Assembly: GCA_017513095.1 (NCBI GenBank) | Contig: JAFWDJ010000024.1 | Location: forward strand, 6,073-70,072 | DNA: 64,000 nucleotides | DNA from: Clostridia bacterium | GTDB taxonomy: Bacteria; Bacillota; Clostridia; Oscillospirales; RGIG577 | Direction: 5' to 3' | In this document: in pieces, positions 3,910-62,318 of the stretch | Position numbering within the stretch: position 1 is the first letter of the stretch | Layout: each line of letters starts with the position of its first letter | Program-made: the position numbers and the translations under genes | The notes under the pieces: generated by a model | What the model was told of the DNA's origin: nothing | Databases searched by the model: none | The model's input: the letters and a program-made list of their open reading frames with translations, nothing else

Positions 3910-3996
3910 AAAGCAACCTCCGAAATTCTTTATATAATAAAACAGGAACAGGAACGGGCAAAAAAGCCCGTCCCTTTGATTTTTTTGTATCGGTGA

Positions 3997-4482: not shown

Positions 4483-4567
4483 TATTTTGTACCTCCTGTT
4501 ATATTTACGGTGTTGTGTTTTTGTTTACGTATGTAATTCTATCATACAATAAATTTCGCTTGTATGT

Positions 4568-5122
4568 CTATTTTATTTCCAAAATCTTAATTTTATCCGC
4601 GGAAATGCCCGTTTGGGTTATAACGATATCCTTAAGCTGCGCGATCTGCGTCTTTTCAAGGCCGTCGGCCTTTACCGTAAGCGTTACGGAGCCGTCGGTA
4701 ATATACGCCGCGCAGTCCGCGAAGCCCTTTGCGCGGACGAGGTTTTCAACGGAGCTCTCCGCAAGTATCGCGTCGGCCATTGCATCCAGCTTTTCGGCGG
4801 CTTTGCTTTTGTCCTCTTCGGAAAGCGATTCGTTGTTTATTACTTCTTTTAAGAGAAAAGCGGCCTCGTCGCGGCTCTTCTGGCGCGTAAGCCGCGCCTG
4901 AGCTATCGCGGGATCTGTCTGCGCGCCCGCGCCTTCGGCGGAAAGGTTGGCGCCGGGCGCGGACACCTCTGCCGTCTCGCCCAGGTCGCTCGACGCGGGG
5001 CTTACGGTTTCGGTTATGTCAAACATGCCGTTTGAATCAGTATAAACGACATTTAGATAAACGGCAAGTGCGATAAGTCCCGCAAGTACAACTATAACAT
5101 ATTTTTTCTTTTTTAAATACAT
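4568..5122 (-). CDS. spoIIIAH: Stage III sporulation protein AH
   Basis: 184 aa with an N-terminal TM anchor. Last gene of an eight-gene spoIIIA-type operon; size and position match SpoIIIAH. Confidence 0.8.
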   Translation of the reverse strand: MYLKKKKYVIVVLAGLIALAVYLNVVYTDSNGMFDITETVSPASSDLGETAEVSAPGANLSAEGAGAQTDPAIAQARLTRQKSRDEAAFLLKEVINNESLSEEDKSKAAEKLDAMADAILAESSVENLVRAKGFADCAAYITDGSVTLTVKADGLEKTQIAQLKDIVITQTGISADKIKILEIK

Positions 5123-5143
5123 TTATTATTCCTCCTTTTGTTT

Positions 5144-5701
5144 TTATGATGAAAGCTTTATAACGCAGATGCTGCTTGAGGGTATTGAAAAAAGCGTTCT
5201 TACGGCTTCTGTTATTGTAAGTACGGTATTATTGTTGTCCGCGCCCTCGCACGCGATTACAACACCGCGCACACGGGGCTCGTTTTTTCTTACAACGATG
5301 GGCTCCTGATTTCCGCCGCTCGAAACGGTAAGAATGCTTTTCTGACTGTCGTACGCCGAGGATATGCGCTCTGAATCGGATGACTCTGTCTTGTTCTCGC
5401 GGCTTTCGACGGCATATACGCGTTCGGTGCCGTTTTCAAGCGTTATCATTACCTCGCATTCCCCCGCCCCGTCCAGCCTTTCAACTATCGCCTTCACCCG
5501 CTGCTCGAGCGTTTTGGCGTATTCTAAATTGTCGCCTTCGTTTGAAGCGCTAAAGTCGGTTTTGTCGCGCGTTTCGCCGACAAGGTCGGGCAGAAATATG
5601 ATAAAGAGGCCGATAATTATGAGTATGATAATAAATTTCGTGTTTTTGCCGCGGAAAACCTTTCTCAAGCTTTCGATATCCACCGATTCACCCGCTCTCA
5701 T
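5144..5701 (-). CDS. spoIIIAG: Stage III sporulation protein AG
   Basis: 185 aa with a single N-terminal TM. C-terminal block (RVRGVVIACEGADN) typical of SpoIIIAG. Operon position fits. Confidence 0.8.
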   Translation of the reverse strand: MRAGESVDIESLRKVFRGKNTKFIIILIIIGLFIIFLPDLVGETRDKTDFSASNEGDNLEYAKTLEQRVKAIVERLDGAGECEVMITLENGTERVYAVESRENKTESSDSERISSAYDSQKSILTVSSGGNQEPIVVRKNEPRVRGVVIACEGADNNNTVLTITEAVRTLFSIPSSSICVIKLSS

Positions 5702-6170
5702 TTGTTTTAATAATAAGCTCCTGTGCGCCGTATCGCACTTTAAGCGCCGCTTCGTCTATCGCGTTCCGGTCGTCCTCGCCGTAAAGTGTTATTTCAAGCG
5801 ACTTGACGCTTTGCTCGCCGTCAAGCCGCGCTTTTACGTTTCCCGGGCGCACGCCGTATTCTTCTAATAGATATGCTTTTACATCCTCGCATATTCCCTC
5901 TTCGGCAAATCTTATTACCTGCATTTTATACGTATCGTTAAAATCGCGGCCATCAGGACTTTCGGTAATAGTGCCGACGTCGGGCGTTATGTACCCCACC
6001 GCACCGTTTGCGAGGTCTTTAAGCGGAGATAAAAGCGCCGCAAGCGCGATAAGGCCGCAGATAAGCTTTAGCGGCGCGCCGAGCGCGCCTTTCGGAAAGA
6101 GAAATCTTATTATCCCCAAAAAAACGCTCAGCGCGATAAGCGTTACGATAAAGGATTTTATATAAGCCAT
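5688..6170 (-). CDS. spoIIIAF: Stage III sporulation protein AF
   Basis: 160 aa with two N-terminal TM helices. Operon position between AE and AG. Confidence 0.75.
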   Translation of the reverse strand: MAYIKSFIVTLIALSVFLGIIRFLFPKGALGAPLKLICGLIALAALLSPLKDLANGAVGYITPDVGTITESPDGRDFNDTYKMQVIRFAEEGICEDVKAYLLEEYGVRPGNVKARLDGEQSVKSLEITLYGEDDRNAIDEAALKVRYGAQELIIKTNESG

Positions 6171-7295
6171 TTATTTTGCCCCCACGGAGACCGTAAGACC
6201 GATCGAAATTACCATAAACACGCATACGCAGACGTTCAGTGAAAATATATACGAAATCGCCGCCGCAAATCCGTTTAAAAGCTTTGTAAGCCGTTCGTTT
6301 CCGAGCGTCTCCGAAAGCGCGGCGGTAATTTTGAAAACGACGAGCTGCGCACCTATCTTTATAAGCGGTATAAGGAAGATGAGCACGACGCCTATGATGC
6401 CGAATACCCCGAAGGCCGACTTTATGATGTGGGAATACGAAATTACAAGGTCGGCGGCGTCGGAGATTATTTTCCCCACGACGGGGACGGCATTCGATAC
6501 GGTGAACTTTACCGTTCTGCCGGCCGCCGCGTCTCCTATAGACGCGACGACTCTGTTTAACGTGATAAAGCCCGTAAAGACCGTGAGCATAAGCCCGAGC
6601 GAAAAGTTTAAAAAGCCGGATATAAGATTACAAAGTCCCGAAAGCTTTACCCCGTCGAATACGGCGTCGGCCGATGAGAGCGCAAGGCGGCAGCATATGA
6701 GCGGAATGAATACGTATTCGACGGCGTGCGACATGGCTTCGATGAGAAAGAAAAGCCAGAATTCAAGCGTGCCCGCGCTTGCGGCTTCGCCTCCCGTAAA
6801 AAGCAATATCACCATGGCGGGAGTGAGCGCCTTGACGAACGAAACGCCGCCCGAGACGGCCGACATTCCCGTCGCTATCACGTCCTTTAATACGGAGATC
6901 ATAACGAGCGAAGCGCTGAGGGCGCATACGGCGTCGGCCGTTTGCGACACCTCACCCGCCGCGAAGGAGCCGCCGAAAACGGTTATGACGGAGCAGAGTA
7001 TCATAACGCCGAGGATCAAAAGCGCGCCTTTTAATGCGCTTTTTAACTCCCCGAAAAATATGTCTGCAACTCTGTTCGGGATATTTCTTATCCCCTCTAA
7101 TCCGCTGCCGCCGACTATTGCGCCCGTGACGGCCTCGGCGCCGAATTCGGGGAAAAGCGCGGCTCTCACGCCGTAGAGCTCATTATCGGCGGCGCGTGCG
7201 TCTATGCCGAATCCGTCCAGGGCACCGATATCCGCAGCGCCGGCGGAAACGGCGGATAACGAAAGAAGGAGGATAAAGAATACAAGCTTTTTCAT
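6171..7295 (-). CDS. spoIIIAE: Stage III sporulation protein AE
   Basis: 374 aa with a signal peptide and a polytopic membrane profile. Size and order match SpoIIIAE. Confidence 0.85.
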   Translation of the reverse strand: MKKLVFFILLLSLSAVSAGAADIGALDGFGIDARAADNELYGVRAALFPEFGAEAVTGAIVGGSGLEGIRNIPNRVADIFFGELKSALKGALLILGVMILCSVITVFGGSFAAGEVSQTADAVCALSASLVMISVLKDVIATGMSAVSGGVSFVKALTPAMVILLFTGGEAASAGTLEFWLFFLIEAMSHAVEYVFIPLICCRLALSSADAVFDGVKLSGLCNLISGFLNFSLGLMLTVFTGFITLNRVVASIGDAAAGRTVKFTVSNAVPVVGKIISDAADLVISYSHIIKSAFGVFGIIGVVLIFLIPLIKIGAQLVVFKITAALSETLGNERLTKLLNGFAAAISYIFSLNVCVCVFMVISIGLTVSVGAK

Positions 7296-7299
7296 GGCT

Positions 7300-7686
7300 T
7301 TATCTCAATAGCGCCGTAAGCGCCGACAGGACCTCAAAAAACACGGGAAGAGAAAGCGCAAGCAGTATGAGCTTTCCGGCAAATTCAAGCTTGCTTCCGA
7401 TGGCGCTTTCGCCCGCGTCGCGGCAAAGATTTACGCCTATTTCGCACAGGCACGCGATGCCGACGGCTTTGAGCATAAGCGAAAAGAATCCGCCGTTTAT
7501 GCCGCCGAGCGCCGCTATGTCCGACAGCCCCGAGAAAATCTCTCCAATATAGCCGAGAGACAGAACGAACAGAAGTATCCCGCAGGCAAGCGAGATAAGT
7601 ACACGGTATTCGCTTTTGTACTGCTTTAAAACGACAGAGAGGACGACACCCGATAAGGCGATACCGATAAACTTTAATATCTCCAT
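7300..7686 (-). CDS. spoIIIAD: Stage III sporulation protein AD
   Basis: About 128 aa, four-TM protein. Start chosen at MEILKF (7686), after the G-rich RBS and the spoIIIAC stop. The ORF could extend to 7704. Confidence 0.75.
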   Translation of the reverse strand: MEILKFIGIALSGVVLSVVLKQYKSEYRVLISLACGILLFVLSLGYIGEIFSGLSDIAALGGINGGFFSLMLKAVGIACLCEIGVNLCRDAGESAIGSKLEFAGKLILLALSLPVFFEVLSALTALLR

Positions 7687-9495: not shown

Positions 9496-11544
<2,049 letters not shown>

Positions 11545-11679
11545 TTACCATACATTTGGAGATTTTACACTCAAAAAAGCGCCGCCAAACGCTTTTTTGG
11601 AAGAAAAAAATCGAAATTTTCTTGAAAAAAGGTATTGATTTTTGAAAAAGCCTGTGATATCATAATTAAGCTGTTGTTC

Positions 11680-11756
11680 GGGCCTTTAGCTCAGTTGGTT
11701 AGAGCAACCGGCTCATAACCGGTTGGTCCGGGGTTCGAGTCCCTGAAGGCCCACCA
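11680..11756 (+). tRNA. tRNA with CAU anticodon (Ile2-like lysidine type, or elongator Met)
   Basis: 77 nt: GGGCCTT acceptor pairs with AAGGCCC and is followed by ACCA. D-arm AGCTCAGTTGGTTAGAGC, anticodon loop CTCATAA, T-arm GGTTCGAGTCC. Body resembles Firmicute tRNA-Ile2(CAU); identity is not decidable by eye. Confidence 0.9.
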
Positions 11757-11760
11757 TAAA

Positions 11761-11787
11761 CCACGCGTCTGCGCGTGGTTTTTTTAT
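11761..11787 (+). terminator. Terminator after the tRNA
   Basis: Stem ccacgcg/cgcgtgg followed by TTTTTTT. Confidence 0.7.
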
Positions 11788-11789
11788 TG

Positions 11790-11817
11790 AAAAGCTCCGC
11801 CGAAAGGCGGAGCTTTT
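11790..11817. terminator. Bidirectional terminator
   Basis: Stem aaaagctccgcc/ggcggagctttt with GAAA loop. Serves the convergent minus-strand gene that ends at 11822. Confidence 0.7.
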
Positions 11818-11821
11818 CAAT

Positions 11822-12418
11822 TTATTGTTTCCGTGTGCCGTGAAACGGATTTGCGGCCGGTTTTCGTATCGGCAAAGAATAATCCCGCTCGAACAGCTCT
11901 TCGATCAGATCGGATTTGAGCTTCTCCACTTCGACGGACTCAAAAATGTATTTTTCGATGAAAGGCCTGCTTTTTGCGCGGTACTTATAAAGCCCGTTCT
12001 TCTCCTGTATGTGCGACAGCTCCCTCCGCCAGAGAAGCGAGAGCTGCCTTTTTAGCTTCGGCTTCCCCGACGGCTTGGGCGGACGCAGTTCATATAAGTC
12101 AATCCCGCCGCCCTCTTTGTTTACAACGATGATGCCCCAGTCTTCGGGAACGTGATCCGCCGCATGCGCCGCGTGAGATGAGCCGATAACGATAATGTTT
12201 CTGTCGAAGTATTTGTTGTAATCCTTGATTTGCCGCGGCAGACGGGCATATGAATCCGCGTCGCTCTTTATCTCGATCCCGCAAAGGTCGTTCTCTGTCA
12301 CCATCACAAGATCGGCGCGGGAGCGTCCCATCGAAAGCTCGTCAAAAAAGCGCACTTTTTCGTATTGCTTCTCAAGATAAAGGCACAGACCGTCTCTTAT
12401 ATCGGCGTCATACAGCAT
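11822..12418 (-). CDS. PD-(D/E)xK nuclease-like protein (resembles the 'sce7726' family)
   Basis: 198 aa. Candidate restriction-endonuclease-like core RADLVMV...GIEIKSDADS (D...E-x-K). N-terminus DIRDGLCLYL is reminiscent of sce7726-family proteins; this assignment is from memory only. Confidence 0.45.
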   Translation of the reverse strand: MLYDADIRDGLCLYLEKQYEKVRFFDELSMGRSRADLVMVTENDLCGIEIKSDADSYARLPRQIKDYNKYFDRNIIVIGSSHAAHAADHVPEDWGIIVVNKEGGGIDLYELRPPKPSGKPKLKRQLSLLWRRELSHIQEKNGLYKYRAKSRPFIEKYIFESVEVEKLKSDLIEELFERDYSLPIRKPAANPFHGTRKQ

Positions 12419-50557: not shown

Positions 50558-51328
50558 TTAGCGGCCGCCGTATTCGCTGCCATAATAGAGAACTTTTCTG
50601 TTCTCGATCTTACGATGATTAACGTCAATAATATATTCGTTTGAATATTGAGCCATCCAATATTCGCCAGACAACTTGCGATTAAGCAGTTTGTCCATCT
50701 CTTCTGATAGATATTCATAATTTGAGTTCCAAACACAAAGTTCTTCGCCGCTCAGTTCAGAATCGTTATCGTTGGCAGGCAGCACGGGATCGGATTTTAC
50801 GTATTCAATCAAGGCATGCAGCTTGTGTGATTCCCTACCTTCGCCCTGCTGTTTATAAAACTCTTCAAAAGAACTCAACAAATCATCGCATTCGATCCAC
50901 ATTGCAGAGTCGCCTGAACCGTACTTGGAATTCCGGATTACGATAGTTTCCAGATTATTCGCCGATATCCCTTGCTTTTTACAGTAATTGAGAAAACGGT
51001 TTATCTCTTTAGGAACCGCGTCTTGTAGCGGTATTTTTGGATATTCTCCATCTTCATCACATAATCCTTCAATGATTGCGGCGCTGAACAGCAGCTCGCA
51101 TAATTCTTCAAGGCTTTTTGCTGTGGATAATGATTTGCCGCCAAAACAGATCTCGCCGTTTTTAACTTCAGGAATAAGGTAAATGCTCTCCGCCGCTTCA
51201 TCTCCCCCATCTTCAGGGCTGACAGCATGCCAAAAATCCGCCATTTTCTTATTCTCGTCAATCAGATATATCTCCAGAATATAGCTTGCACTGCTCGAAT
51301 TGGTCACAAAATCCGTGCGTATTTTCAC
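50558..51328 (-). CDS. FVTNSSS-motif protein, paralog 3 (unknown function)
   Basis: 256 aa. GTG start after GAGGA. N-terminus MKIRTDFVTNSSSASYILEI is shared with the ORFs at 51988-52815 and 55027-55698. Confidence 0.75.
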   Translation of the reverse strand: MKIRTDFVTNSSSASYILEIYLIDENKKMADFWHAVSPEDGGDEAAESIYLIPEVKNGEICFGGKSLSTAKSLEELCELLFSAAIIEGLCDEDGEYPKIPLQDAVPKEINRFLNYCKKQGISANNLETIVIRNSKYGSGDSAMWIECDDLLSSFEEFYKQQGEGRESHKLHALIEYVKSDPVLPANDNDSELSGEELCVWNSNYEYLSEEMDKLLNRKLSGEYWMAQYSNEYIIDVNHRKIENRKVLYYGSEYGGR

Positions 51329-51465
51329 TTTAGGTCCTCATTTCTTTATTGAAATATTGATAAAACCAAGCACGGGGCAACGGCTGGTCCTTGAATATTA
51401 TTATATGCTGCCGCCCTTAAGACAGGCAAATCCTTTGCCAAAAACGCGCTCTCTCTCGCGGCGTA

Positions 51466-51618
51466 TCACCGTTTGTCTGCGGCGATATAAATATCGGGAG
51501 CTTTCGTATAATTTTTACGTGAGAGGTTTTGCAAAGCGCACCTTATGCAGTTCACCGGGAAACCGCAGCTCGGGCACACGCCGTCCTCCATAGGCGTACC
51601 GCAGCGCGGACAATCCAT
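51466..51618 (-). CDS. Mini zinc-ribbon protein, copy 1 (50 aa, absent from the ORF track)
   Basis: MDCPRCGTPMEDGVCPSCGFPVNCIRCALQNLSRKNYTKAPDIYIAADKR. GGAGGAG RBS 5 nt upstream. The first 24 codons are duplicated at 55749-55853, with mostly synonymous differences. Confidence 0.65.
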   Translation of the reverse strand: MDCPRCGTPMEDGVCPSCGFPVNCIRCALQNLSRKNYTKAPDIYIAADKR

Positions 51619-51635
51619 ATTTACTCCTCCTTTTC
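51547..51635 (-). repeat. About 89-nt repeat (RBS + zinc-ribbon coding start), copy 1
   Basis: About 90% identical (7 mismatches in the 72 coding nt by manual alignment) to 55782-55870. Confidence 0.8.
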
Positions 51636-51987
51636 TTAAAAATAATGCTGTTGTCGGTATATTCGTGTGAGCTTTGAATTATTATAATCAAGTGTTTTTA
51701 CACTGATTTTGCTGATATTCAACTTTGTATCCTGATATCCGCCTCTTATTCTTTTTAGGCTGCTGTATTTAGTAAACCTTATGCAGTAAAGAGACGATCG
51801 TTATTATATAATTGCTGCTTTTCTGTTCTCTCTATACCTTTGAGCACTTCTTTTCTTAACAGTCCGATCCACCGGAGCAGTTTTTTTGAAAAATCGTAAG
51901 CATAATTGCCGCGTTAAACAAATCATGGGTCTTCCGGTTGCGGCAGTTTCGGCCGCTTATTTAAGAAATTCTTCGATGGGGCGCAAT

Positions 51988-52815
51988 TCACACCCCCGCG
52001 AGCCAATCGAAAATCATCTCGAAATCATTTTCCGAAATTATAGGGATGTTAAGCTCCAAGGCTTCTTTTATTTCCGCAGTAGTAGATTTCGGATCGTTGG
52101 TTATTAAATAGTCAACATTTCTCGAAATCGTACTAACGACAGTACCGCCGAACGCATCGATAAAATCTTCTGCATCTTCTCTATAAACGCAATTTTCAGC
52201 AATAAAAAATCTTTTGCCTTTAAATGCATGTATATCTAAGCCGCTTGTCTCACTGAAAACGCTTCCGCTGCGCATATGCAAACAAATGCTTTCCCATTCT
52301 TCTTCCGCACTTCCATCGAATTTTTCATATACGTGCGGTTTGACTTCTTTGGTCAAGAGTTTTACCGTGCCGCCATAACGCACGAATTCTCCCCATGCTT
52401 TGTGTGTTTGGGTAATGGTAATGAACGAAATGTCTGATGTGTTGAAAAAAGAAGATCTTAAGGCGCTTTCAAAATCATCAAGGTCTTTAGTCATTTTTTT
52501 CAAAAAATCATCATCATATTTTTGGCTTAGTTTTTTTAAGCTTTCATTAGGACATTCTTCGTCGCTTTCCGGGTCAGTGTAATCTAAAAGCGTAACAGAA
52601 TCAGTCAGTGCTTTTGCCAAATCGGAAACAGAATCGATGCCGGTCAAAGCTTTCAGATTTGCCACATTAAAGCTTGCTTCACCGCCGCCATATGTATAGG
52701 TATCTGTAGGATCGATCTCGACCCACACTTTTTTATCATTTGGACCCATAACTTCGATTACGACGGAAAAACTGCTGCTTGAGCTGTTTGTCACAAAATC
52801 AGTTCTGAATTTCAT
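51988..52815 (-). CDS. FVTNSSS-motif protein, paralog 2, fused to a C-terminal BRCT domain
   Basis: 275 aa. N-terminus MKFRTDFVTNSSSSSFSVVIEV. C-terminus FKGKRFFIAE...GGTVVSTISRNVDYLITND...NIPIISENDF aligns with the LigA BRCT in this window. Confidence 0.8.
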   Translation of the reverse strand: MKFRTDFVTNSSSSSFSVVIEVMGPNDKKVWVEIDPTDTYTYGGGEASFNVANLKALTGIDSVSDLAKALTDSVTLLDYTDPESDEECPNESLKKLSQKYDDDFLKKMTKDLDDFESALRSSFFNTSDISFITITQTHKAWGEFVRYGGTVKLLTKEVKPHVYEKFDGSAEEEWESICLHMRSGSVFSETSGLDIHAFKGKRFFIAENCVYREDAEDFIDAFGGTVVSTISRNVDYLITNDPKSTTAEIKEALELNIPIISENDFEMIFDWLAGV

Positions 52816-52838
52816 GTTGAATCTTCCTTTCCGTTAAA

Positions 52839-53915
52839 TTATTTTGTTCTTTCTTCGCTGCCGCAGAAGACGATTTGTGGCATAAGCGGGCATCCGCCCA
52901 TGCATAAGGCTTTTTTTTCGCAGCCGGGGCAGGCCGCGCGCATTTTATCGCGGAAACGCTCGAAGGGCTCGCTGTTCCACGCGTCTTCGATTGAAACTTC
53001 TTCGCCAAGCCGTACCTCATAGCGTTTATTCTGGTCGAAGGAGCACGGCACCATGACCATATCCGCGCCGATGTAGCAGCTGAAGCGCCCGCCCTCGCAC
53101 GTATCGAGAGACTCGGGCATGATGCGTTTGCAGAAGTTCAGCGCGCCGGGCACGTTGCAGGAGTCCATGCCCACCTTGAATGAATGGTGCTTGTCTACCT
53201 GAGAAAAGAACTTGGCCACGCGGGGATCGTTAACGTCCAGCACGTTTGACTGTGACCCCTGTCCCGCCGGCTTGTGCAGAAGAAAGATCACCGCGTTGAT
53301 TCCCTGAGGAAAGTCGTCTCGCTCGAGCCTGTCGATGGCCTCGTCGATGCTGTTCCGGCCGAGTACGTAGTGGATATTTGTCTTCACGCCCGCACAAAGC
53401 AGCATCCGAACGGCGTTTAGTGTATACTCGCTTCGATACCAGCTTACAGCGACTGCGCCGCAATACTTTTTGCAGAGAGCGGCAATTTCCGGCGTCATGC
53501 CGTAGCCTGAGGTCGTGAAGTTTGGTACAAGGCAGTTTTCCCGGCTGATGCGCAGCAGGTCTTCAAAATGTTCGTGCTGATCGGGGTCGCCCCTGCCGCC
53601 CAGCGCAAGCTGGTTGCAGCGGCCGCGGCACTGCTTTGCAATCAGACGGAAGTTTTCAACCGTCATATTGGGCTGCTCCACCAAAAGACCGCTCTGATAG
53701 CACCCGATGCCGGCCTTTGCGCAGAGACCCGTTCTGCCGTGGATGCAGTGCCCCATAACACCGACGTCGATAAGATGCGGAAACGACGCCATAAACGGAT
53801 CGACTCCGGTGTCGCGCCCGTTTTCGTCAAGCACGCCCGTGCGTATATATGCGCCCGTGTCGGTGTCAAAGGCGGATTTAAAATGATATTTCTTGTCGTC
53901 GATTATGTATTTCAT
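52839..53915 (-). CDS. Radical SAM/SPASM-domain enzyme with non-canonical N-terminal Cys spacing
   Basis: 358 aa. CIHGRTGLCAKAGIGC (Cx7Cx6C) where CxxxCxxC is expected. GGE-like ALGGRGDP and TNG-like NFTTSGYG. SPASM Cys pattern CEGGRFSCYIGADMVMVPC...CPGCEKKALCMGGCP. Confidence 0.75.
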   Translation of the reverse strand: MKYIIDDKKYHFKSAFDTDTGAYIRTGVLDENGRDTGVDPFMASFPHLIDVGVMGHCIHGRTGLCAKAGIGCYQSGLLVEQPNMTVENFRLIAKQCRGRCNQLALGGRGDPDQHEHFEDLLRISRENCLVPNFTTSGYGMTPEIAALCKKYCGAVAVSWYRSEYTLNAVRMLLCAGVKTNIHYVLGRNSIDEAIDRLERDDFPQGINAVIFLLHKPAGQGSQSNVLDVNDPRVAKFFSQVDKHHSFKVGMDSCNVPGALNFCKRIMPESLDTCEGGRFSCYIGADMVMVPCSFDQNKRYEVRLGEEVSIEDAWNSEPFERFRDKMRAACPGCEKKALCMGGCPLMPQIVFCGSEERTK

Positions 53916-53971
53916 TTATTCAAATCTCCCTCGTTTTCTTTCCGATATATTCTCTGCCGCCCTTTTTTGTT

Positions 53972-55012
53972 TCATTCCTGAGTCGAATCAGACGGCGTCA
54001 GATACTGCGCGATAAACTCCTGCTCGCTGATAATAGGAATGCCGTCTGATTGTGCTTTACGTATCTTTGTTGTGCCTGAGTCCGGAAAATTGGTGATAAG
54101 AGCAGTCGTTTTGGAGGATACGCTTCCGCTCAGCTTTCCGCCGTTATGGAGAATTATCTCTTTTAACGCATCCCTGCTTGAAAAATTGAACAGATCGCCT
54201 GTGACGACAAAGGTCTTTCCCGAAAGTTTTTCAAATTCTCCTAAGAGCGCTGCATTAAGCCCTTGAAAGGAAAAAGATATCTTTCCCGAAAGCTTTTCAG
54301 ATTCTCCGGATGAAATGTTTACGGCCTTCTGTTTTTTCGGTTTTTCCGGCGGAACATAAAATACTTCGTTTTCGGGATAATGAATTTCGATAGTTTTGTA
54401 AGGAGCGGTCAGCCGTTTCTTCGGGTAAGGTTTGGAAGGCACGATTTCATCTGAGCACATTTGTTTTTTTCCGTCAAAAAGCACGTAGTCCTGCCTCTCC
54501 CACATGGGCTTTTCTTTAAACTCGTAAAGCTTCCCTTTGATTCTGAAGCTGTCCTCAGTCGGATCGTGAATAATACTCCATCTGTCACGAGCATAAAAAT
54601 CACACGTGTCAATGTAACGCATAACGGTAACAGAAGGATATCCGCTCTCAGAGTACGCAAGGTAGACAGTTCTGTTTTTCCAGTCTTCCGCGAAAAATAC
54701 CGCCTTCATATATGGATAATTTTCCAGCACATAAGGCACATGTGCGCTTTCGCATTCAAATTGAGCAATTCCATCGCATAACGTGTCTATTATCTTCCCG
54801 GGATTATCGTTATCGGGCCAGATTGTCCTGACCGCATCCAGTACGTCGAATTCCAATCCTCTGAAAACAGCCCCTGAGAAATAAGCAGTTTTCTCATATT
54901 GCTCTTTTGCGGCGGCGTCGGTAGAACCTGCTGTAAACGGGCACATCCTGCCTTCCGAAGTAAGCCTTTCAATAAATGCGTCTTTCTTTTCTTTTGCAGT
55001 ACTGTAATTCAT
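53972..55012 (-). CDS. Unknown N-terminal domain + C-terminal BRCT domain protein
   Basis: 346 aa. C-terminus LSGKTFVVTGDL...GGKLSGSVSSKTTALITN...GIPIISEQEF closely parallels the LigA BRCT (FTVVVTGTL...[18 protein letters not shown]...[10 protein letters not shown]). Confidence 0.8.
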   Translation of the reverse strand: MNYSTAKEKKDAFIERLTSEGRMCPFTAGSTDAAAKEQYEKTAYFSGAVFRGLEFDVLDAVRTIWPDNDNPGKIIDTLCDGIAQFECESAHVPYVLENYPYMKAVFFAEDWKNRTVYLAYSESGYPSVTVMRYIDTCDFYARDRWSIIHDPTEDSFRIKGKLYEFKEKPMWERQDYVLFDGKKQMCSDEIVPSKPYPKKRLTAPYKTIEIHYPENEVFYVPPEKPKKQKAVNISSGESEKLSGKISFSFQGLNAALLGEFEKLSGKTFVVTGDLFNFSSRDALKEIILHNGGKLSGSVSSKTTALITNFPDSGTTKIRKAQSDGIPIISEQEFIAQYLTPSDSTQE

Positions 55013-55026
55013 TATAATCCCCCCTG

Positions 55027-55698
55027 TTAAACCAAATCAAAATCTGATGTATCAAAGTATTCGCCGGTTCTCAGGTTCAGTCGTTTTATCTCTACGCCGC
55101 TTACGCGTCCCGGACCATATGAGCTGCACAGACGTTTTGCGAGCGTTTCCAAAGACCGACCGCCCCAATTATAACGACATACAGCCGCATTTCCGAATGA
55201 TTCTCCAATTGCGTCCGAAACTGTATTGATGTATGTTACCATTTCTGCTTCGGCACGCATTTTTTCTATTCCGGTCTGGGCTTTAAGATACTTTTGGGCC
55301 AGTTCAATGAGTATTATGTCGTTGTCTGCAATAATATCCGCCATCTCTCCCCATGCGTCGTAGCGTCGCTTCACCGTTATTTCGACAATATCCCGAACGC
55401 TGTTGAACTTAGTGCATGCTTCTCTTATAAATCTTTCCTTTTTACGGCGCAGCGGGTATGAGTCCGTGCTTTCCCAGTAATCATGAATTGAGCCTGCAAG
55501 CCATGTCGCCAGCTCGTTCACGGAAGAAAGGTGAGAATTGATGTTTTTCAAATCTCCGTTAAAAACCATTGTGGAGCCTCCGTCTGAGGTCTGCCTGTTC
55601 TCCGAAATGCTGACATATCGATTTGGCGAGCTGATCATAACCTCCACTGTAAAATTGCTTGAACTGGAATTTGTCACAAAGTCTGTGCGTATTTTCAT
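55027..55698 (-). CDS. FVTNSSS-motif protein, paralog 1 (unknown function)
   Basis: 223 aa. ATG after GGAGG. N-terminus MKIRTDFVTNSSSSNFTVEVMI. Shares an I-x-I-x(n)-WGE block with paralog 2. Confidence 0.75.
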   Translation of the reverse strand: MKIRTDFVTNSSSSNFTVEVMISSPNRYVSISENRQTSDGGSTMVFNGDLKNINSHLSSVNELATWLAGSIHDYWESTDSYPLRRKKERFIREACTKFNSVRDIVEITVKRRYDAWGEMADIIADNDIILIELAQKYLKAQTGIEKMRAEAEMVTYINTVSDAIGESFGNAAVCRYNWGGRSLETLAKRLCSSYGPGRVSGVEIKRLNLRTGEYFDTSDFDLV

Positions 55699-55953: not shown

Positions 55954-57285
55954 TCAAAGCTTTTTCAGCATTTCTAACGCATTACGGTCGCCGCCCTCAG
56001 CGCCTCTCTTGATCCACGCCTTTGCAATAGTTTCATCTCTCTTAACACCGTCTCCGCGACCATACATAAGTCCCAGGTTTGTCTGGGCCTGCGGAAATCC
56101 CAGTTCTGCTCCCCGCCGGTACCACTGAACCGCCGCCGCTTTGTTGACTGCAACGCCGCGTCCTTTCTCATAGCACAAGCCTAGCATCCACATTGCTTTC
56201 GCACTGCCTCCTTCTGCAGCTTTTTTTGCCCATCGGATGCCGTCCTGATAGTCTATCGCGCTGTCTCCGTCGCTGATGCAAATGCCAAGAGATATATACG
56301 ATTCCGCAATATCCGTCTGCGCGTTTATATCCCCGCTCTCTGCAACGGTTTTCCGTTCGAGGATCGATCGGATTATTTCTGTTAAATTCAGCGCATCATT
56401 ATCTCCGGCTTCAGCCGCCCGGGATATATACTCTTCGGCTTTTGCCAGATTTCGCGGGACGCCGAGTCCCCTTTCGTACATCAGCCCTATGTTGAAAATG
56501 GCGTCTCTGTCATTACGTTCTGCTAGACGATCAAACCAGAGCTTTGCTTTCCTGTAGTCCTGTTTCAAACCATTTATCCTCTTGAAATAAGAGATCGCAA
56601 GATTTGTCATAGCATAGATGTTTCCATACGGAGCAAGGCGCATGGATTCTTCCAGCGTTGTCGGTCGATATTCCTCATTTTCCCGACCGTCAGTGCTTTC
56701 CGCAATTGTATTTGATAGTTCAATCGCAATATTCACCAATCCCTTTTCGATCAGATTGACGCCGAGTGCGGAGTAATACGCTTCGGAAATCGCATCTGAA
56801 TAAATAATCAGATGGTTATCCGAAGCAGGAAGCGCAGACAACGCTTTGATCGCCGCAGGCAGAAAATCCAGTTCCCGTTTCTTTCCCAGCTTCAAGGAGA
56901 GATCGCCCTCCCATGCGGGAGCCTGTCCTTTGGCACGGACAGTATGCAAGCTGCATCCATGTTCCGTAATCGCAAGAGCATAGAAGATACAAGCCAGCGT
57001 TTTTGAGATCTCCTCCTTCGATGGCATTGTTTCCCGCACATAGGCGCTCAAAGCAATAGGGATGCGATCGAGGGTATTGTAATCTAAAGCAAAGCATTGA
57101 TCCTGCCCAAGCGCCTGAATTTCCGATTGCAGAAAGAGGGACAGGTACCGTCCCATGATCGCCTCTCCCTGTACGGCAACAGGCTGTTTCGGTAGCTGCA
57201 ACCAATGCTCTTTGTGTAATTCGTATTGATTTAGTATTTTCTCTATCGCTTCGTTTGGGGTCAGAAGGGACATCCATTCTCTCAT
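55954..57285 (-). CDS. Sel1-repeat (SLR/TPR-like) protein
   Basis: 443 aa. The C-terminal half holds several Sel1 repeats (AIFNIGLMYERGLGVPRNLAKAEEYISRAAEAG; AMWMLGLCYEKGRGVAVNKAAAVQWYRRGAELG; AQTNLGLMYGRGDGVKRD...). Confidence 0.8.
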   Translation of the reverse strand: MREWMSLLTPNEAIEKILNQYELHKEHWLQLPKQPVAVQGEAIMGRYLSLFLQSEIQALGQDQCFALDYNTLDRIPIALSAYVRETMPSKEEISKTLACIFYALAITEHGCSLHTVRAKGQAPAWEGDLSLKLGKKRELDFLPAAIKALSALPASDNHLIIYSDAISEAYYSALGVNLIEKGLVNIAIELSNTIAESTDGRENEEYRPTTLEESMRLAPYGNIYAMTNLAISYFKRINGLKQDYRKAKLWFDRLAERNDRDAIFNIGLMYERGLGVPRNLAKAEEYISRAAEAGDNDALNLTEIIRSILERKTVAESGDINAQTDIAESYISLGICISDGDSAIDYQDGIRWAKKAAEGGSAKAMWMLGLCYEKGRGVAVNKAAAVQWYRRGAELGFPQAQTNLGLMYGRGDGVKRDETIAKAWIKRGAEGGDRNALEMLKKL

Positions 57286-57376: not shown

Positions 57377-58231
57377 CTACTCTGAAACCAGAGTATCAAA
57401 ATATTCATCCTCGAATTCTTCTCTGCTCTTTATCCCCAGTTCTTTTATACGCTCCACCGCATTTTTAAACGATTCTTCATCTATTTTTACCGGGAATATC
57501 TCGGTAAACTCACTTAAACTGAGCTCAAACAATTTTCTCTCTCCAAACAATTCTTCAATAGAATCGTAGTAATAATTTTCATAATCATCACTATCGAATT
57601 CAAATAGTTTTTTGAACTTTTCATAAGAAAGTATGTCTGCAACATAATCGAAATAGGCAGAATCGAAATAGTCACTATCGGGGTCTGCCCATATCGTTAC
57701 CACTAACGGAATCATCGGCAGTGGGCCCGAATATTTGGTGTATGAGGAGAATGATTTGGTTTTTGGATCGTAAAACCTTCCCCAAATCCCTTCACTATCA
57801 TCATCTTCTTCATTCTCTTGGAGGTCCTCTCCAAATGGCTTGTAGTCGAAGCTTAAGAATAACCGTCCGTCCTTAAGCTCCGCATCTAAAGATTGTTTTG
57901 AACCGGGATCAAATCCTGAAATTGATCCTCTAAAATAACAGGTGGGCGCTGTGTCAGCAATTCTTTGGAAAAGGTCACAATCATCCTCGAGAAGACCGTA
58001 CCAGACTCCATACGGACCGCTGAGACCTAAAGACATTTCTCCCGATTTCCAGCATGTGTCTACTTCCTTTTCAGGATCGCCTATCGTTACATCCAAATAC
58101 CAGCAGTCGTGTTTTTCTCTGTATTGCTTTTTCCGATCATTTGCGTAATGCCTAAGCACCTTCATAACCTCCAGACACTCTTCTTTTGTTCCCTTAACGG
58201 TAATCACCGTTGTAAAATCAGCTGCTCCCAT
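57377..58231 (-). CDS. Acidic hypothetical protein (first gene of the low-GC cluster)
   Basis: 284 aa. GGAGG RBS. Asp/Glu/Tyr/Phe-rich C-terminal half. About 40% GC in a spot count. No family recognised. Confidence 0.65.
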   Translation of the reverse strand: MGAADFTTVITVKGTKEECLEVMKVLRHYANDRKKQYREKHDCWYLDVTIGDPEKEVDTCWKSGEMSLGLSGPYGVWYGLLEDDCDLFQRIADTAPTCYFRGSISGFDPGSKQSLDAELKDGRLFLSFDYKPFGEDLQENEEDDDSEGIWGRFYDPKTKSFSSYTKYSGPLPMIPLVVTIWADPDSDYFDSAYFDYVADILSYEKFKKLFEFDSDDYENYYYDSIEELFGERKLFELSLSEFTEIFPVKIDEESFKNAVERIKELGIKSREEFEDEYFDTLVSE

Positions 58232-58496: not shown

Positions 58497-58536
58497 ACAA
58501 AAAAGAAGTGCGGCCGATTGGCCGCACCCTTTTTGA
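58497..58536. terminator. Bidirectional terminator between the PolC-like gene and the low-GC cluster
   Basis: Stem gtgcggcc(58508-58515)/ggccgcac(58520-58527), with an A-run upstream and a T-run downstream. Confidence 0.6.
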
Positions 58537-58578: not shown

Positions 58579-61151
58579 CTATCGATCCAAGCGTTTCGCC
58601 CTATACGGCACGCGGATGCTGCCGTTTTCGGGGACGAAACGCTCCGCGTGGGACGCGTTTTTGTCGGCAGGAAGGAATGAAATGCCAGAGTCGTAGCATT
58701 CCAGGGCAAGCTTCAGGATTTTTATACGTTCCGACTCAATACATCTTTCGCCCTGCTTTCCCACAATTCGATTATACTCCTCATAGGCGCGCGCGCGGCC
58801 TTCGGCGAGGACGCCGTAGAGGACGCCGTAATCGAATTTTGGCTCATCAAACTCATCAATGCACGAAAGAACGGCGGCAAAGAACGCGGCGGGGCGGTTT
58901 ATTCTGTACCATACCTTCCTGAGATCGTTTATCACGGATCCGATCGCGTGCGCCTTTGGAAAAAGATAATATATCTCCCTCATCGATGCGATTAACCGTT
59001 CGGGGACGCCGTGTTGCTTCATTATTTCAAGCTGACTTTCATCAAAGCCGTGACGCGCCCTGCCCATTCTCACGTATTGTGCTATGGAATACGCGTCTTT
59101 TCGTCCTACTCCGTATCTCATCAGAGAAAGCATGACGTCCTCGCGAAACGCGATAGGCCCGCCGCAGTCGGCGCACGCCCCGATAAGCTCTCCGGGATCG
59201 TCGGAGCGGTCGAAGACGCCGTGATCAAAGCCAAAGATATTTACAAGGTCGGAGAATTTTGTCGGCTTTACGGCGGAGATAAATCTTTTAAAACTCTCCG
59301 AGCCGAAAGAAATGCCCTCAAGACTTGCGGCGCCGAAATACGAGGCGAAATCTATATCGCCAATATCAATGCTTTCTGCCGGCACGCCCGAATACTCTTC
59401 CATAAGCTTAAGCTCCGAAAAAAGCGTAAAGTCGTACATACATATTCTTTCAAGTGGGAGATAACGACAATCAATAAGCGTTATAGGCTTGACTTTGCCG
59501 CAAGAGCGTGACAGATACGTGTACCGTGTCGGTGAAAAGTCGGATATATCATATCCCCGGGGAACGATGAGAAAGGCTCCGGGGTGTCGGCCGCCCGCTA
59601 CATGCACCGACGCCATTTTTTTGACAATGCGTTCTCTTTGTCCGAGGCCTATGGACGTATTCGTTTCTTCGCAGTATTTATCTACCAGATCCGAAATACA
59701 CCGCTCGCCCATCCGTCCGTAAATCGTAGACTCCGAACCGGCGAGAACCGTGTTGTTCCTGCCGAACACCTCTTCAAGGCAATCAAGAATTTCCGTTCGG
59801 ATATCTTCGGCAAAGTTAAAATAAAACTCAGGTGATATGTCCCCTTCGTACCCGGTGAAGAATTCGCACGGGAGATTATGCCCGTCGCCCGTGTAAGGTG
59901 TGCCGCAGTCGGGACAAAGGCGCCTTTCGACGCCGAAGGTGACAAGATCGTATCCCGAGGCGCACTCCGTCTCATCGACGAATTCTACCCTTTTGCAATT
60001 CGGGCAGAAATAATGCGGCGGCAGAGGATTTGTCTCCGTTATGCCCAAAAGATACGAAACGAACGAACTTCCGACGCATCCGCTAAGCTTGTGAATATAG
60101 CCTTTACCGCGGCTTTTGTCGGACATTTTCGCCGCAAGCAGATAGTGTGACCAGCCGTCCGAACTGTCAATCTTTTCGAACTCGTCCGCTATGCGCAGGC
60201 GTATGATATCCGGCGCCGCTTCGCCGTATTTTTCGGCGGAGGCACTCAGAGCGCGCGATATGACCTTGCTTCGCGCGTAAGGAAGACAGAGCGTCGGCTT
60301 TTCAAACGGGAGCGGGTCGAAGCTTTCGACCGCTTCCGCGATGAGGTTCGTGTTTTCTATGACCGCCGTTTCCGTCATATCCCCAAGGAACGCAAAATCG
60401 CGAAGCATCTCCTCGGTCGACTTCATAAAGGCGATATTTTCATCCTGCCCGTCCTTCTGATGGAGGATCTTAAAGCAGAGCTCGTCTTCCTTTGTTATGC
60501 AGTTCGCGCGGCTTACCGCGGCGGGATGTTTTCCGATGCTCTGAAGGACGCGGACTGCCGCGAGTGCCGCCTCTTTGAGCGCGGCCCCGTCCGCTTCCTC
60601 TGACGAAACCGCCGAAAGCGCGCTTTTTGGGGGCAAGGTGATCTCTGCGTAATCGACGCCGTCAAATAGGACGAAAGCTCGCGCCGGACGTCAGCTTCGC
60701 TTTTATTTACGAAGCTTTGTATATGATCCCACGTGCATTCCCTGCCGATGAGAACGTCCTCTTTGTATTTGAGCACCAAATCCCAATCGATGTACGGCCG
60801 TTGATCGTTTTTAAGGTCCGTCGCCGCTTTTCGGTAACCGGCCGAAATGATAAGGTACACGTTTCTTAATCCGTGCCTCGTTTTGGCAAGCAGTGTTATA
60901 AAGAATTCGCCGCCGTTTTTGTCATGGCATAAAAGCCGCACGCCGAAAATGGCCTTGATTCCCGCATTCGCGCTTTTAACGGCTTCTGAAAGCTTTAAAA
61001 CGGAATGCACGGAGTCGAAATCTGTTATCGCCACGGCGTTTGAGCCGTTTTTTACTGCGAAATCCACGACGTCATCGGGCGTTATCACCGTTTCCCGGTA
61101 TCCGAAGCAGGAGCTTACGCCAAGCTCGATATGTCTTTTTTCGTTTGCCAT
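58579..61151 (-). pseudogene. Truncated, frameshifted PolC-like (PHP + Pol III alpha) paralog
   Basis: Two overlapping ORFs (60513-61151 and 58579-60636). PolC-type zinc module PPHYFCPNCKRVEF...CPDCGTPYTGDGHNLPCEFF. Colinear with PolC to the C-terminus (YLFPKAHAIGSV...ISFLPAD). No exonuclease, OB or N-terminal domains. The reading frame changes near 60671-60690. Confidence 0.7.
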
Positions 61152-61169: not shown

Positions 61170-62318
61170 TTATTCCGTCTTCCTCTTTCTTCTGCCGGCG
61201 TTCTCGCTTGCCTTGAAGTTGTAGATGGGCTTAATTATCTTCTCTATAACTACCGTGTCCCCAATATTTTTGATTATCTCTTCCATGGGCTTATATACCA
61301 TCGGGCATTCGTCTATCGTATCCCGTGTGACGGATGTCGTAAAAATGCCCTCCATAGATTCCTTATATGCTGTAAGCGTAAAAGAATCAAGGGCGTCCTT
61401 TCTGCTCATAAGCCTGCCCGCGCCGTGAGGCGCGCTGAAATTCCACTCCTCGTTTCCGAGACCCGTGCAGATAAGGCTGCCGTCGCGCATATTCATCGGA
61501 ATGAGAAGTCGCTCGCCCTTTTTGGCTGATACGGCTCCCTTTCGCAGAATCATTGCGCCGACGTCGACGTAGTTGTGGACCGTCGAAAAGCTTTTCTCCT
61601 CGGTAAGCTTCATACCGTCGAGGATGACTTCCTTTATGACCGTGCGGTTGAGATGCGCGAACGCCTGCATGAACTCCATATCGTGAAGGTAATCCCGCAT
61701 ATCGTCTCCGCTGAGGTATGAAAGCTCATACGGTATCTCATCCTGTCCGCGCCCGCCGCAGGCGCCGTACGCCTTTTTCTGATAATGCTCCGCCACGCGA
61801 AGACCGAGATTGCGGCTTCCCGTATGTATCACGAGATAAAGGTTATCCTCGTCGTCGCGGTCTATCTCGATAAAGTGATTGCCGCCGCCGAGCGTTCCAA
61901 TGCTCTCCTTTGCCCTGCGGATATCGATCTTTTTTACGCAACGAAGATCATAGATATCAAGACGGCCGTGGCTTCGGTGGCTCCTTTCGCGCACCTCGAA
62001 GCCGCAGGGGATATTTTGGCGTATAAAGCTGTCGAGCTTCGGCAGGTCGATGCGTTTTTCGGAAAGCTTCACCGTGAGCATACCGCAGCCTATATCCACG
62101 CCCACGACGTTGGGAACGATTTTATCATGTATCGTCATCGTTGTGCCTATGGTAGAGCCCTTGCCGGCGTGCACGTCGGGCATAATGCGTATCCTTGCGC
62201 CCTCTGACGCCGGCTGGTCGCAGAACGCCTTTATCATGCTCTCCGCAGAGGGCTCAAGGGTGTCCGTAAACACATTTGCCTCTGCGTATCTGCCTTTTAT
62301 CTCAATCATTCGTTTCAC
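61170..62318 (-). CDS. rtcB: RtcB-family RNA 3'-phosphate ligase
   Basis: 382 aa. Motifs MPDVHAGKGSTIGTT, GGGNHFIE and SAPHGAGR. Confidence 0.9.
   Translation of the reverse strand: MKRMIEIKGRYAEANVFTDTLEPSAESMIKAFCDQPASEGARIRIMPDVHAGKGSTIGTTMTIHDKIVPNVVGVDIGCGMLTVKLSEKRIDLPKLDSFIRQNIPCGFEVRERSHRSHGRLDIYDLRCVKKIDIRRAKESIGTLGGGNHFIEIDRDDEDNLYLVIHTGSRNLGLRVAEHYQKKAYGACGGRGQDEIPYELSYLSGDDMRDYLHDMEFMQAFAHLNRTVIKEVILDGMKLTEEKSFSTVHNYVDVGAMILRKGAVSAKKGERLLIPMNMRDGSLICTGLGNEEWNFSAPHGAGRLMSRKDALDSFTLTAYKESMEGIFTTSVTRDTIDECPMVYKPMEEIIKNIGDTVVIEKIIKPIYNFKASENAGRRKRKTE

Follow-up and report, generated by a model that had tools for sequence, protein, structure and literature searches.

Gene Organization of the Island

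The DNA analyzed here, called the window throughout, is a stretch of 64,000 nucleotides from a Clostridia bacterium (assembly GCA_017513095.1, contig JAFWDJ010000024.1, positions 6,073 to 70,072). A run of open reading frames (ORFs) on its minus strand, at about 50.5–58.5 kb, forms an island of low guanine-plus-cytosine (GC) content, with 44–48% GC over 50–60 kb against 50–55% in the flanks. A sequence-only reading of the window had drawn attention to two ORFs in this run that end in BRCT domains outside the DNA ligase LigA, one of them in a protein that starts with the motif FVTNSSS. The gene between these two ORFs had been overlooked. It encodes a predicted radical S-adenosylmethionine (SAM) enzyme with a SPASM domain, and it was found to be the conserved partner of the motif. 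The cassette formed by this enzyme and by proteins with a common N-terminal tail containing FVTNSSS is the subject of this report. Its genes and features in the window were as follows (aa, amino acids).

55027–55698, minus strand: 223-aa FVTNSSS-tail protein, whose gene directly precedes that of the 346-aa protein (ORF list).
55651–55698, minus strand: tail MKIRTDFVTNSSSSNF of the 223-aa protein (motif search).
53972–55012, minus strand: 346-aa protein with an N-terminal domain, here named X, a disordered linker and a BRCT domain (ORF list, Pfam).
54413–54955, minus strand: X domain of the 346-aa protein, about residues 20–200 (invariant alignment columns, AlphaFold2 (AF2) model).
54214–54307, minus strand: local duplication in the 346-aa gene (28-nt direct repeats).
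54011–54232, minus strand: BRCT of the 346-aa protein, residues 261–334, RFC1/LigA class (Pfam, PDB sequence and Foldseek matches).
52839–53915, minus strand: 358-aa predicted radical-SAM/SPASM enzyme (Pfam SPASM, invariant cysteines).
51988–52815, minus strand: 275-aa protein with an FVTNSSS tail, a body of about 170 aa and a degenerate BRCT (ORF list, Pfam).
52768–52815, minus strand: tail MKFRTDFVTNSSSSSF of the 275-aa protein (motif search).
52027–52224, minus strand: BRCT of the 275-aa protein, residues 198–263, with a degenerate pocket (Pfam, LigA alignments).
50558–51328, minus strand: 256-aa FVTNSSS-tail protein with a GTG start, beginning (V)KIRTDFVTNSSSASY, tail at 51281–51328 (ORF list).

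The Predicted Radical-SAM/SPASM Enzyme

The 358-aa protein matched the Pfam SPASM family (PF13186) with an E-value of 5.6e-7 and 30.2 bits against a cut-off of 21.5, and the model TIGR04085 with 27.0 bits against a cut-off of 27. In addition, collinear partial matches below threshold were obtained to the maturase models TIGR04317, TIGR03962 and TIGR04303, and no NCBIfam maturase model reached its cut-off. The cluster motif was non-canonical, being C57-x7-C65-x6-C72 (CX7CX6C) and not CX3CX2C. These three cysteines were invariant across 87 homologues, together with C148, C152 and the full SPASM set, which comprises C329x2C332x5C338x3C342 and C273, C280, C291 and C351. For the three cluster cysteines and the signature C329x2C332x5C338x3C342, the invariance was counted in 83 full-length homologues.

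At E ≤ 1e-3, an exhaustive homologue search returned 1391 cluster representatives; at E ≤ 1e-30, it returned 204. Full-length relatives with 30–36% identity carried the canonical CX3CX2C and the sequence ALGGG[NE]P at aligned positions, and two canonical relatives, P0300 and P0323, contained Pfam Radical_SAM (PF04055), the former also SPASM. The ALGGRGDP of the window enzyme aligned with the ALGG-G[NE]P of the canonical relatives, with an insertion of one residue, and an 8-residue insertion in the window clade gives rise to CX7CX6C. With the family profile, the best PDB sequence matches were anSME (the anaerobic sulfatase-maturating enzyme), BtrN and PqqE, each of them a weak match that fell in the SPASM/twitch region; adiponectin, which came up in a single-sequence search, was spurious and was discarded. 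Furthermore, the enzyme was matched by phrog_7293, which is listed as 'unknown function'. We conclude, on the evidence of these sequence comparisons, that the 358-aa protein is a derived radical-SAM/SPASM enzyme.

One or all three of the N-terminal cluster cysteines were lost in the relatives P0239 (locus L089) and P0215 (alignment A7), and some members of the family, judged from such substitutions, may be inactive pseudo-enzymes.

The Tail and Its Bodies

The tail has the 16-residue consensus MK[IF]R.[DG]FVTNSSS[ST]S[FY] (MKIRTDFVTNSSSSSF). It is carried by three ORFs of the window (55027–55698, 51988–52815 and 50558–51328), and the back-translated motif occurred three times in the window and not at all in 100 shuffles. 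Positions 14–16 (S, S, F/Y) lay outside the pattern used for searching the IMG/VR database, yet they were nearly invariant. Each copy of the tail gene has its own ribosome-binding site. Moreover, the tail codons varied synonymously between copies, in the window and in other genomes, including switches between AGY and TCN serine codons; selection therefore acts on the tail peptide and not on the DNA. The same variation ruled out the tail as a DNA-level element such as a recombination site or a shufflon.

The AF2 model of the 223-aa protein had a predicted local distance difference test (pLDDT) score of 92.5 and a predicted template-modelling (TM) score of 0.86; its residues 1–12 lacked secondary structure and scored about 52 in pLDDT. 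A Foldseek search with this model gave nothing significant in the PDB (best E-value 0.066, TM score ≤0.23) or in BFVD. Homologues of the 223-aa protein with a length of about 225 aa were present among the listed FVTNSSS-family clusters, and no family was found for the tail proteins in Pfam, NCBIfam, PHROGs or PADLOC.

When the first 20 residues were removed, 353 unique tail proteins fell into 63 groups that were unrelated by BLAST, and the nine largest body groups gave hhalign probabilities of at most 5.6%. This ruled out that all tail proteins form one divergent family. Within the window, the bodies of the 223-aa and 275-aa proteins were weakly related (26% identity, E-value 0.001), and that of the 256-aa protein was unrelated to both by BLAST. 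The tail proteins spanned 76–1062 aa. The longer ones were fused to BspA-type leucine-rich repeats (LRR_5), BRCT, TIR (TIR_2) or beta-propeller (PQQ_2) domains, and those of phages were small and in 99% of cases net acidic. What the sequence-only reading had termed an FVTNSSS paralog is better described as an N-terminal tag common to interchangeable bodies.

Linkage of the Enzyme and the Tail

The enzyme was searched for in one genome per species, which gave 177 relatives at 65–87% identity, and 80 loci were kept for neighbourhood analysis; counts out of 80 below refer to these loci. The hosts included Clostridia, Lachnospiraceae, Oscillospiraceae, Eggerthellaceae, Bacteroidales, Anaerolineaceae and others, among them the cultured Acetatifactor muris DSM 23669, whose gene pair lies at 9935–11077 and 11087–11917 of locus L056. 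Of the 80 loci, 72 had one or more ORFs that start with MK[IFV]R.DFVTNSSS. The tail ORF mostly began within a few tens of bases of the enzyme stop codon and on the same strand, and up to four such ORFs stood in tandem. After all-against-all clustering of the neighbourhoods, only the enzyme and tail families were conserved, all others occurring at 11 loci or fewer.

Distant relatives, with either a canonical CX3CX2C enzyme or a place on a phage-like contig, showed the linkage as well. At locus L090, the ORF upstream of a canonical enzyme begins with MRYGFVTNSSSTSF, and on the phage-like contig L091 four tail ORFs follow the enzyme. Furthermore, a degenerate DNA pattern for the tail found at least 120 loci in IMG/VR, on contigs of 8–504 kb, most of them longer than 20 kb, with up to six tandem copies and with 324 tail ORFs at the 120 loci listed (median length 136 aa). 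The enzyme family was present at 59 of the 120 listed loci, which are often short, and it was encoded on the same strand as the tail at 58 of these 59.

At one bacterial locus (L004, 8319–9386), the enzyme gene was intact (83% identity by tblastn), and the public gene calls give a spurious ORF on the opposite strand instead; annotation-based censuses therefore undercount the family. Escherichia phage RB16 (L093, 2914–4068) and 166 other T4-like records encode a 'putative radical SAM protein' with C-x8-C-x2-C and with no FVTNSSS neighbour. This is a separate branch of the enzyme family, and the homologues of T4-like phages such as RB16 and KP15, having no tail neighbour, were placed outside the system.

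We read these data, with moderate confidence, as a cassette of a radical-SAM/SPASM enzyme and tailed proteins, in which the tail would be modified or held by the enzyme and BRCT would be one interchangeable targeting module. The same linkage is expected if the tail only docks, whether on the enzyme or on some other hub and perhaps through beta-strand addition, so that diverse sensor or effector bodies plug into one catalyst with a different target, such as a nucleotide, DNA or a host protein. Docking would agree with an enzyme that is 65–87% identical across phyla beside hypervariable bodies, with fusions to LRR, BRCT, beta-propeller and TIR domains, which are typical of sensor–effector architectures, and with the AF2 model, where the last tail residues, S-S-F-[IV], enter the first beta-strand of the body. 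However, the SPASM-domain radical-SAM enzymes characterized so far have, to our knowledge, peptide or protein substrates (see also PMC7159879), and the invariant serine-rich stretch exceeds the usual needs of simple docking. We regard docking as unlikely.

The BRCT Domains

Pfam PF00533 matched residues 261–334 of the 346-aa protein (E-value 5.9e-14, 52.5 bits) and residues 198–263 of the 275-aa protein (E-value 2e-10, 41.2 bits). Both values exceed the gathering cut-off of 21.3 bits, so that the two ORFs do carry BRCT domains, as the sequence-only reading had claimed; its fusion of the 275-aa protein to an FVTNSSS start was likewise borne out, since that protein begins with MKFRTDFVTNSSSSSF. 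The NCBIfam LigA models and the PHROG ligase families matched only the C-terminal BRCT stretches of both ORFs, the LigA models covering there only their last 70–110 positions with 17–48 bits against cut-offs of 369–1051. That either ORF is a LigA was rejected, the adenylation, OB, zinc-finger and helix-hairpin-helix domains being absent from the profile matches. A motif-for-motif agreement with the LigA encoded at 9496–11493 of the window (minus strand) had also been described. It stood for the 346-aa protein, whose BRCT was 33% identical to that of this LigA (pairwise BLASTP E-value 0.002), but not for the 275-aa protein, which gave no BLASTP match to the window LigA and lacked the quoted strings, its BRCT motifs being GKRFFIAEN and GGTVVSTISRNV.

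The BRCT of the 346-aa protein had PDB sequence matches to LigA (9vse, E-value 3.8e-9) and RFC1 (2ebu and 2k6g). By Foldseek, it matched 2ebu (E-value 1e-5), 2k7f (an RFC1 DNA complex), 7u1a, LigA and the phage ligase subunit 9hu3_B; the top matches had root-mean-square deviations of 1.7–2.4 Å, and the AF2 pLDDT was about 90 over residues 260–340. In yeast Rfc1, Thr166, Gly167, Arg174 and Lys209 form the site for the DNA 5'-phosphate, and its single-BRCT subclass is common to bacterial ligases and PARP1 (PMC9359705). All four residues are kept in the 346-aa protein as T271, G272, R280 and K301 (aligned to 2ebu, 2k6g and 9vse), so that this copy keeps the phosphate pocket for which the sequence-only reading had asked for a check. 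The domain thus resembles the single BRCTs of RFC1, LigA and PARP1 in sequence, in fold and in the T, G, R, K site, and the residues and the modelled fold make 5'-phosphorylated ends or nicks in DNA its most likely binding target. Unlike in those proteins, it is attached to no ligase, clamp loader or PARP.

The local duplication noted at the entry of this BRCT was confirmed at the DNA level. Two 28-nt direct repeats (54214–54241 and 54280–54307), 93% identical and 66 nt (22 codons) apart, encode GESEKLSGK and GEFEKLSGK and give a 22-residue insert in the linker before the BRCT, which is missing from the closest homologues (P0007, P0008 and L005). In the AF2 model of the whole 346-aa protein (mean pLDDT 77.7), linker residues 223–257 scored below 50, so that the duplication falls in a disordered linker.

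In the BRCT of the 275-aa protein, three of the four pocket positions were lost (A206, Gly deleted, N233; R212 kept; aligned to LigA 1l7b and 9vse), and the absence of pocket residues, which the sequence-only reading had named as a ground for refuting it, thus applies to this copy. Relatives with the same fusion of tail and BRCT (P0002 and P0003) retained T-G, and Asn likewise replaces Lys in them. Because its phosphate pocket is lost, the BRCT of the 275-aa protein, as far as its residues indicate, more likely mediates protein contacts.

The view that BRCT is mostly confined to LigA in bacteria, and that two more copies are unusual, does not apply to this lineage. BRCT modules 60–74% identical to that of the 346-aa protein were fused elsewhere to LRR_5 and SWIM domains, and a C-terminal PF00533 was present in about 47 of the 120 listed FVTNSSS-family clusters. 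A fusion of tail and BRCT lay directly downstream of the enzyme in at least eight other genomes (six flagged, and L050 and L064, in which the BRCT ORFs contain the tail motif) and in L001. BRCT is accordingly a portable module in these bacteria, not a rarity. Any BRCT was found in 12 of the 80 cassettes, and 68 had none; the BRCT proteins are optional add-ons of the cassette. The PADLOC models for the candidate system PDC-S48 matched both BRCT proteins (E-values 1.6e-10 and 1.8e-7), but the match was confined to the C-terminal BRCT (profile positions 329–406), and it is the domain that is common, not the system.

The sequence-only reading had proposed that the BRCTs read phosphorylated serines of FVTNSSS. 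The T-G/K phosphate pocket of the 346-aa protein would suit this, and S13-x-x-F/Y16 of the tail fits the pSer-x-x-Phe pattern that tandem BRCTs read. The fit is probably coincidental, because most cassettes contain no BRCT. For the same reason the proposal cannot explain why the motif is conserved, with BRCT in only 12 of the 80 cassettes and the motif invariant also in the 68 others. Moreover, the BRCT that is fused to a tail is the one that has lost the pocket, a Pfam scan found no kinase among the island ORFs, and no kinase family recurred in the cassette neighbourhoods. Single BRCTs of the RFC1/LigA class bind the DNA 5'-phosphate and not phosphopeptides (PMC9359705). Such a reader of phosphoserine is very improbable.

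The X Domain and the Partners of the 346-aa Protein

The N-terminal region of the 346-aa protein had been called unrecognized, and it remained so: the X domain had no match in Pfam, NCBIfam, PHROG or PADLOC. All 50 of the 50 PDB matches listed by Foldseek for the 346-aa model were BRCT-containing, with at most 130 aligned columns, and none covered the X domain. The AF2 pLDDT was mostly 84–93 over residues 21–200, falling to 62–77 at 131–150, and the invariant columns of alignment A8 gave the motifs FRG, QFEC, FFAEDW, YLAYSESGY, CDFY.RDRW and HDP. The domain occurred in 12 homologous clusters, in some of them as the C-terminal part of proteins of 331–606 aa.

The 346-aa protein carries no FVTNSSS tail. 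At locus L005, a 1172-aa protein ends in an X domain and a BRCT, and over its C-terminal 340 residues the identity to the 346-aa protein was 46%. At L004/L005, this 1172-aa protein comes after a 225-aa tail protein and the enzyme. Four more pairs of 223-type and 346-type genes, each on one contig, are suggested by agreement in the lengths of their longest contigs.

The same island of L004 also encodes (3408–7529) a 1373-aa protein with BspA-type LRRs and a weak BRCT match, and its gene adjoins RNase_T, WYL, AAA_14/DUF4143 and SbcCD-like genes.

Neighbouring Genes and the Edges of the Island

The remaining features of the island in the window were the following.

55954–57285, minus strand: 443-aa Sel1-repeat protein, an accessory of uncertain membership in the cassette (Pfam Sel1, E-value 2e-38).
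57377–58231, minus strand: 284-aa acidic protein, the first gene after the terminator, membership uncertain (ORF list).
58506–58529, no strand assigned: strong bidirectional terminator-like hairpin with a 10-bp stem and 7 G-C pairs (hairpin scan).

Relatives of the Sel1-repeat protein occurred at only 7 of the 80 loci, and those of the 284-aa protein, which has a net charge of −0.11 per residue, at 2. The latter protein has no tail and no family match, and its composition is like that of the acidic bodies of phage tail proteins. The hairpin is likely the upstream edge of the island. In the gap of 660 nt between the 275-aa and 256-aa genes (51329–51987), the sole ORF encodes a 50-aa zinc-ribbon-like protein (51466–51618, weak Pfam Zn_Ribbon_1/DZR matches), and a promoter-like site lies at 51429–51400.

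The flanks of the window contain a PHP gene, a DNA_pol3_alpha-like gene, a gene for the RNA ligase RtcB and housekeeping genes. A prophage origin of the island was rejected, no phage structural genes being present in the flanks. Directly upstream of the terminator, two adjacent and slightly overlapping minus-strand ORFs (58579–61151) encode a 212-aa PHP domain protein and a 685-aa protein whose only match is to the DNA_pol3_alpha NTPase domain; taken as a pair, they resemble a DnaE-like polymerase that has been split or truncated. The RtcB gene (61170–62318, minus strand) is close to the island as well. On the phage contig L112 (9801–11117), a copy of the cassette has genes of phrog_968 (RNA ligase) and phrog_850 (RNA-binding protein) on its flanks. 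The presence of an RNA ligase near the window and phage cassettes may be a coincidence or a link to RNA repair.

The variable neighbours of the cassette included RNase_T exonucleases, UvrD, SbcC-like ATPases, MrfA/Lhr-type helicases, HEPN and WYL proteins and a giant AAA+/FtsH-like protein, which are typical of repair or conflict islands. The cassette may play a role in conflicts between phages and hosts. In PADLOC-DB 2.0, the enzyme and the 223-aa tail protein had no match at E ≤ 0.1, and the 256-aa tail protein had only a chance-level match to GajB (E-value 0.026).

This neighbourhood also bears on whether the two BRCT proteins are ordinary DNA-repair accessories that stand beside the cassette by chance. 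The PHP, DNA_pol3_alpha-like and RtcB genes nearby, the LigA elsewhere in the window and the recurrence of SbcC, UvrD and RNase_T near cassettes would be in line with it. However, the 275-aa protein itself carries the tail, its kind of fusion directly follows the enzyme in the further genomes given above, and the gene for the 346-aa protein comes after that for the 223-type tail protein in a conserved order (L004/L005). A chance association is hardly credible on these grounds.

A further possibility concerns the tail rather than the BRCTs. It could be a sorting or turnover signal, either for capsid targeting as in the internal proteins of phage T4 or as a degron for an AAA+ protease, with the radical-SAM gene a mere neighbour. 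The internal proteins of T4 carry a capsid-targeting sequence at their N-terminus, and arrays of small acidic proteins with a common N-terminus of about 16 residues were found in large phage contigs; in L112, such an array lies between a virion structural protein gene and the RNA ligase gene. As for a degron, the gene directly upstream of the cassette in Acetatifactor muris DSM 23669 (L056, 3899–9292) encodes a 1797-aa protein in which two AAA+ modules are combined with an M41 peptidase domain of the FtsH type, and large proteins related to it occurred at 11 of the 80 loci. On the other hand, the cassette is also found in chromosomal contexts without phage structural genes, as in the window, the linkage of enzyme and tail persists in lineages that are very far apart, and the AAA+ protease is present in a minority of loci only. 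We consider a sorting or turnover signal quite improbable.

Proposed Mechanism

In the reading that we prefer, the tail would thread into the enzyme and be chemically modified there, or at least held, by analogy with the SPASM maturases and especially with anSME, whose target is a short motif close to the N-terminus of full-length proteins. What remains of each tailed protein would be an interchangeable body. In phages, the bodies would be small acidic proteins, and in bacteria they would include BRCT, BspA-type LRR, TIR and beta-propeller fusions. The BRCT of the 275-aa protein would then be a C-terminal module for protein contacts on a tagged protein. The 346-aa protein would be the tail-less, conserved downstream partner of the 223-aa tagged protein, and its BRCT would bring the complex to DNA.

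Several observations weigh against this reading. The window enzyme had no PF04055 (Radical_SAM) match at E ≤ 0.1, its cluster motif is non-canonical, and the relative P0239 (L089) has no cluster cysteines. By regular-expression search, 8 of the 80 loci had no tail ORF; at several of them (such as L060, L078 and L080) the contig breaks off at the enzyme gene or no more than about 1.1 kb from it, and others, such as L076 and L082, have full flanks of 10 kb. T4-like phages carry a radical-SAM gene of 27% identity without an adjoining tail protein. Moreover, no protease or exporter was conserved in the 80 neighbourhoods, ABC transporters being present at 6; the cassette is therefore not a standard pathway for ribosomally synthesized peptides that undergo post-translational modification (RiPPs). 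The predicted DNA binding by the 346-aa BRCT comes solely from four residues and the fold similarity. Finally, the X domain was found at none of the 80 loci, and the 346-aa partner is therefore limited to one sub-lineage.

Comparison with Known Systems

A close parallel is the system of anSME or AtsB and sulfatases, in which a SPASM radical-SAM enzyme likewise acts on a short N-terminal motif of full-length folded proteins, as is proposed here. Among PDB sequences, anSME matched the enzyme family best, in the SPASM region, and the match was weak (E-value 0.03). However, the tails have no C/S-x-P/A-x-R motif, and the partners gave no sulfatase Pfam match. In addition, the window enzyme has CX7CX6C where anSME has CX3CX2C, and its partners are dozens of unrelated bodies.

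In the RiPP maturase cassettes (PqqE, MftC, the SCIFF maturase and FxsB/FxSxx-COOH; PMC7159879), a SPASM gene also adjoins genes with a common short sequence, tandem 'precursor' paralogues occur, and some contexts are conflict islands. They differ in that the partners here are proteins of 76–1062 aa, one of which was modelled as folded (pLDDT 92.5), with the conserved element at the extreme N-terminus. The FtsH ternary and FxSxx-COOH systems (Kaur et al. 2020; PMC7159879), which come closest among described systems, were set aside, having different peptides and a different radical-SAM clade.

The phage arrays further resemble the T4 internal proteins in a short common N-terminus, in hypervariable small proteins and in their occurrence as arrays in large phages. 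They have no sequence similarity to those proteins, however, and the FVTNSSS tail goes together with a radical-SAM gene and occurs in bacterial chromosomes as well.

Nothing relevant to the motif or to SPASM systems of phages was found in full-text literature searches. In Pfam, NCBIfam, the PHROG annotations and the PADLOC models, the tail proteins are not covered and the enzyme clade is not named. We class the cassette as a variant of the radical-SAM/SPASM maturation theme and the BRCT finding as a new architecture of a known domain.

Biological Implications

A wider interpretation, which we advance only tentatively, is a protein-tagging system common to large phages and gut bacteria. The enzyme would make the tail reactive or cross-linked and so give all bodies one common property, and the BRCT versions would deliver it to DNA ends. 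Possible chemistries of the tail are conversion of serine to a formylglycine aldehyde and a Phe-Thr cyclophane. Within such a system, the bodies of the phage tail proteins might perhaps be anti-defence-like, a suggestion that we make with similar reserve.

If the tail is the substrate of the radical-SAM enzyme, the cassette would represent a pathway of post-translational modification whose target is an invariant N-terminal handle on many unrelated full-length proteins. The cassette enzyme is present in at least 177 bacterial species of several phyla, and tail ORFs in at least 120 viral contigs. The radical-SAM enzymes would gain a clade whose cluster loop is CX7CX6C, and the arrays of small acidic phage proteins one common biochemical logic. 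Furthermore, the single BRCT of the RFC1/LigA type serves bacteria as a portable module far outside ligases, and in one sub-lineage its phosphate pocket has been lost.

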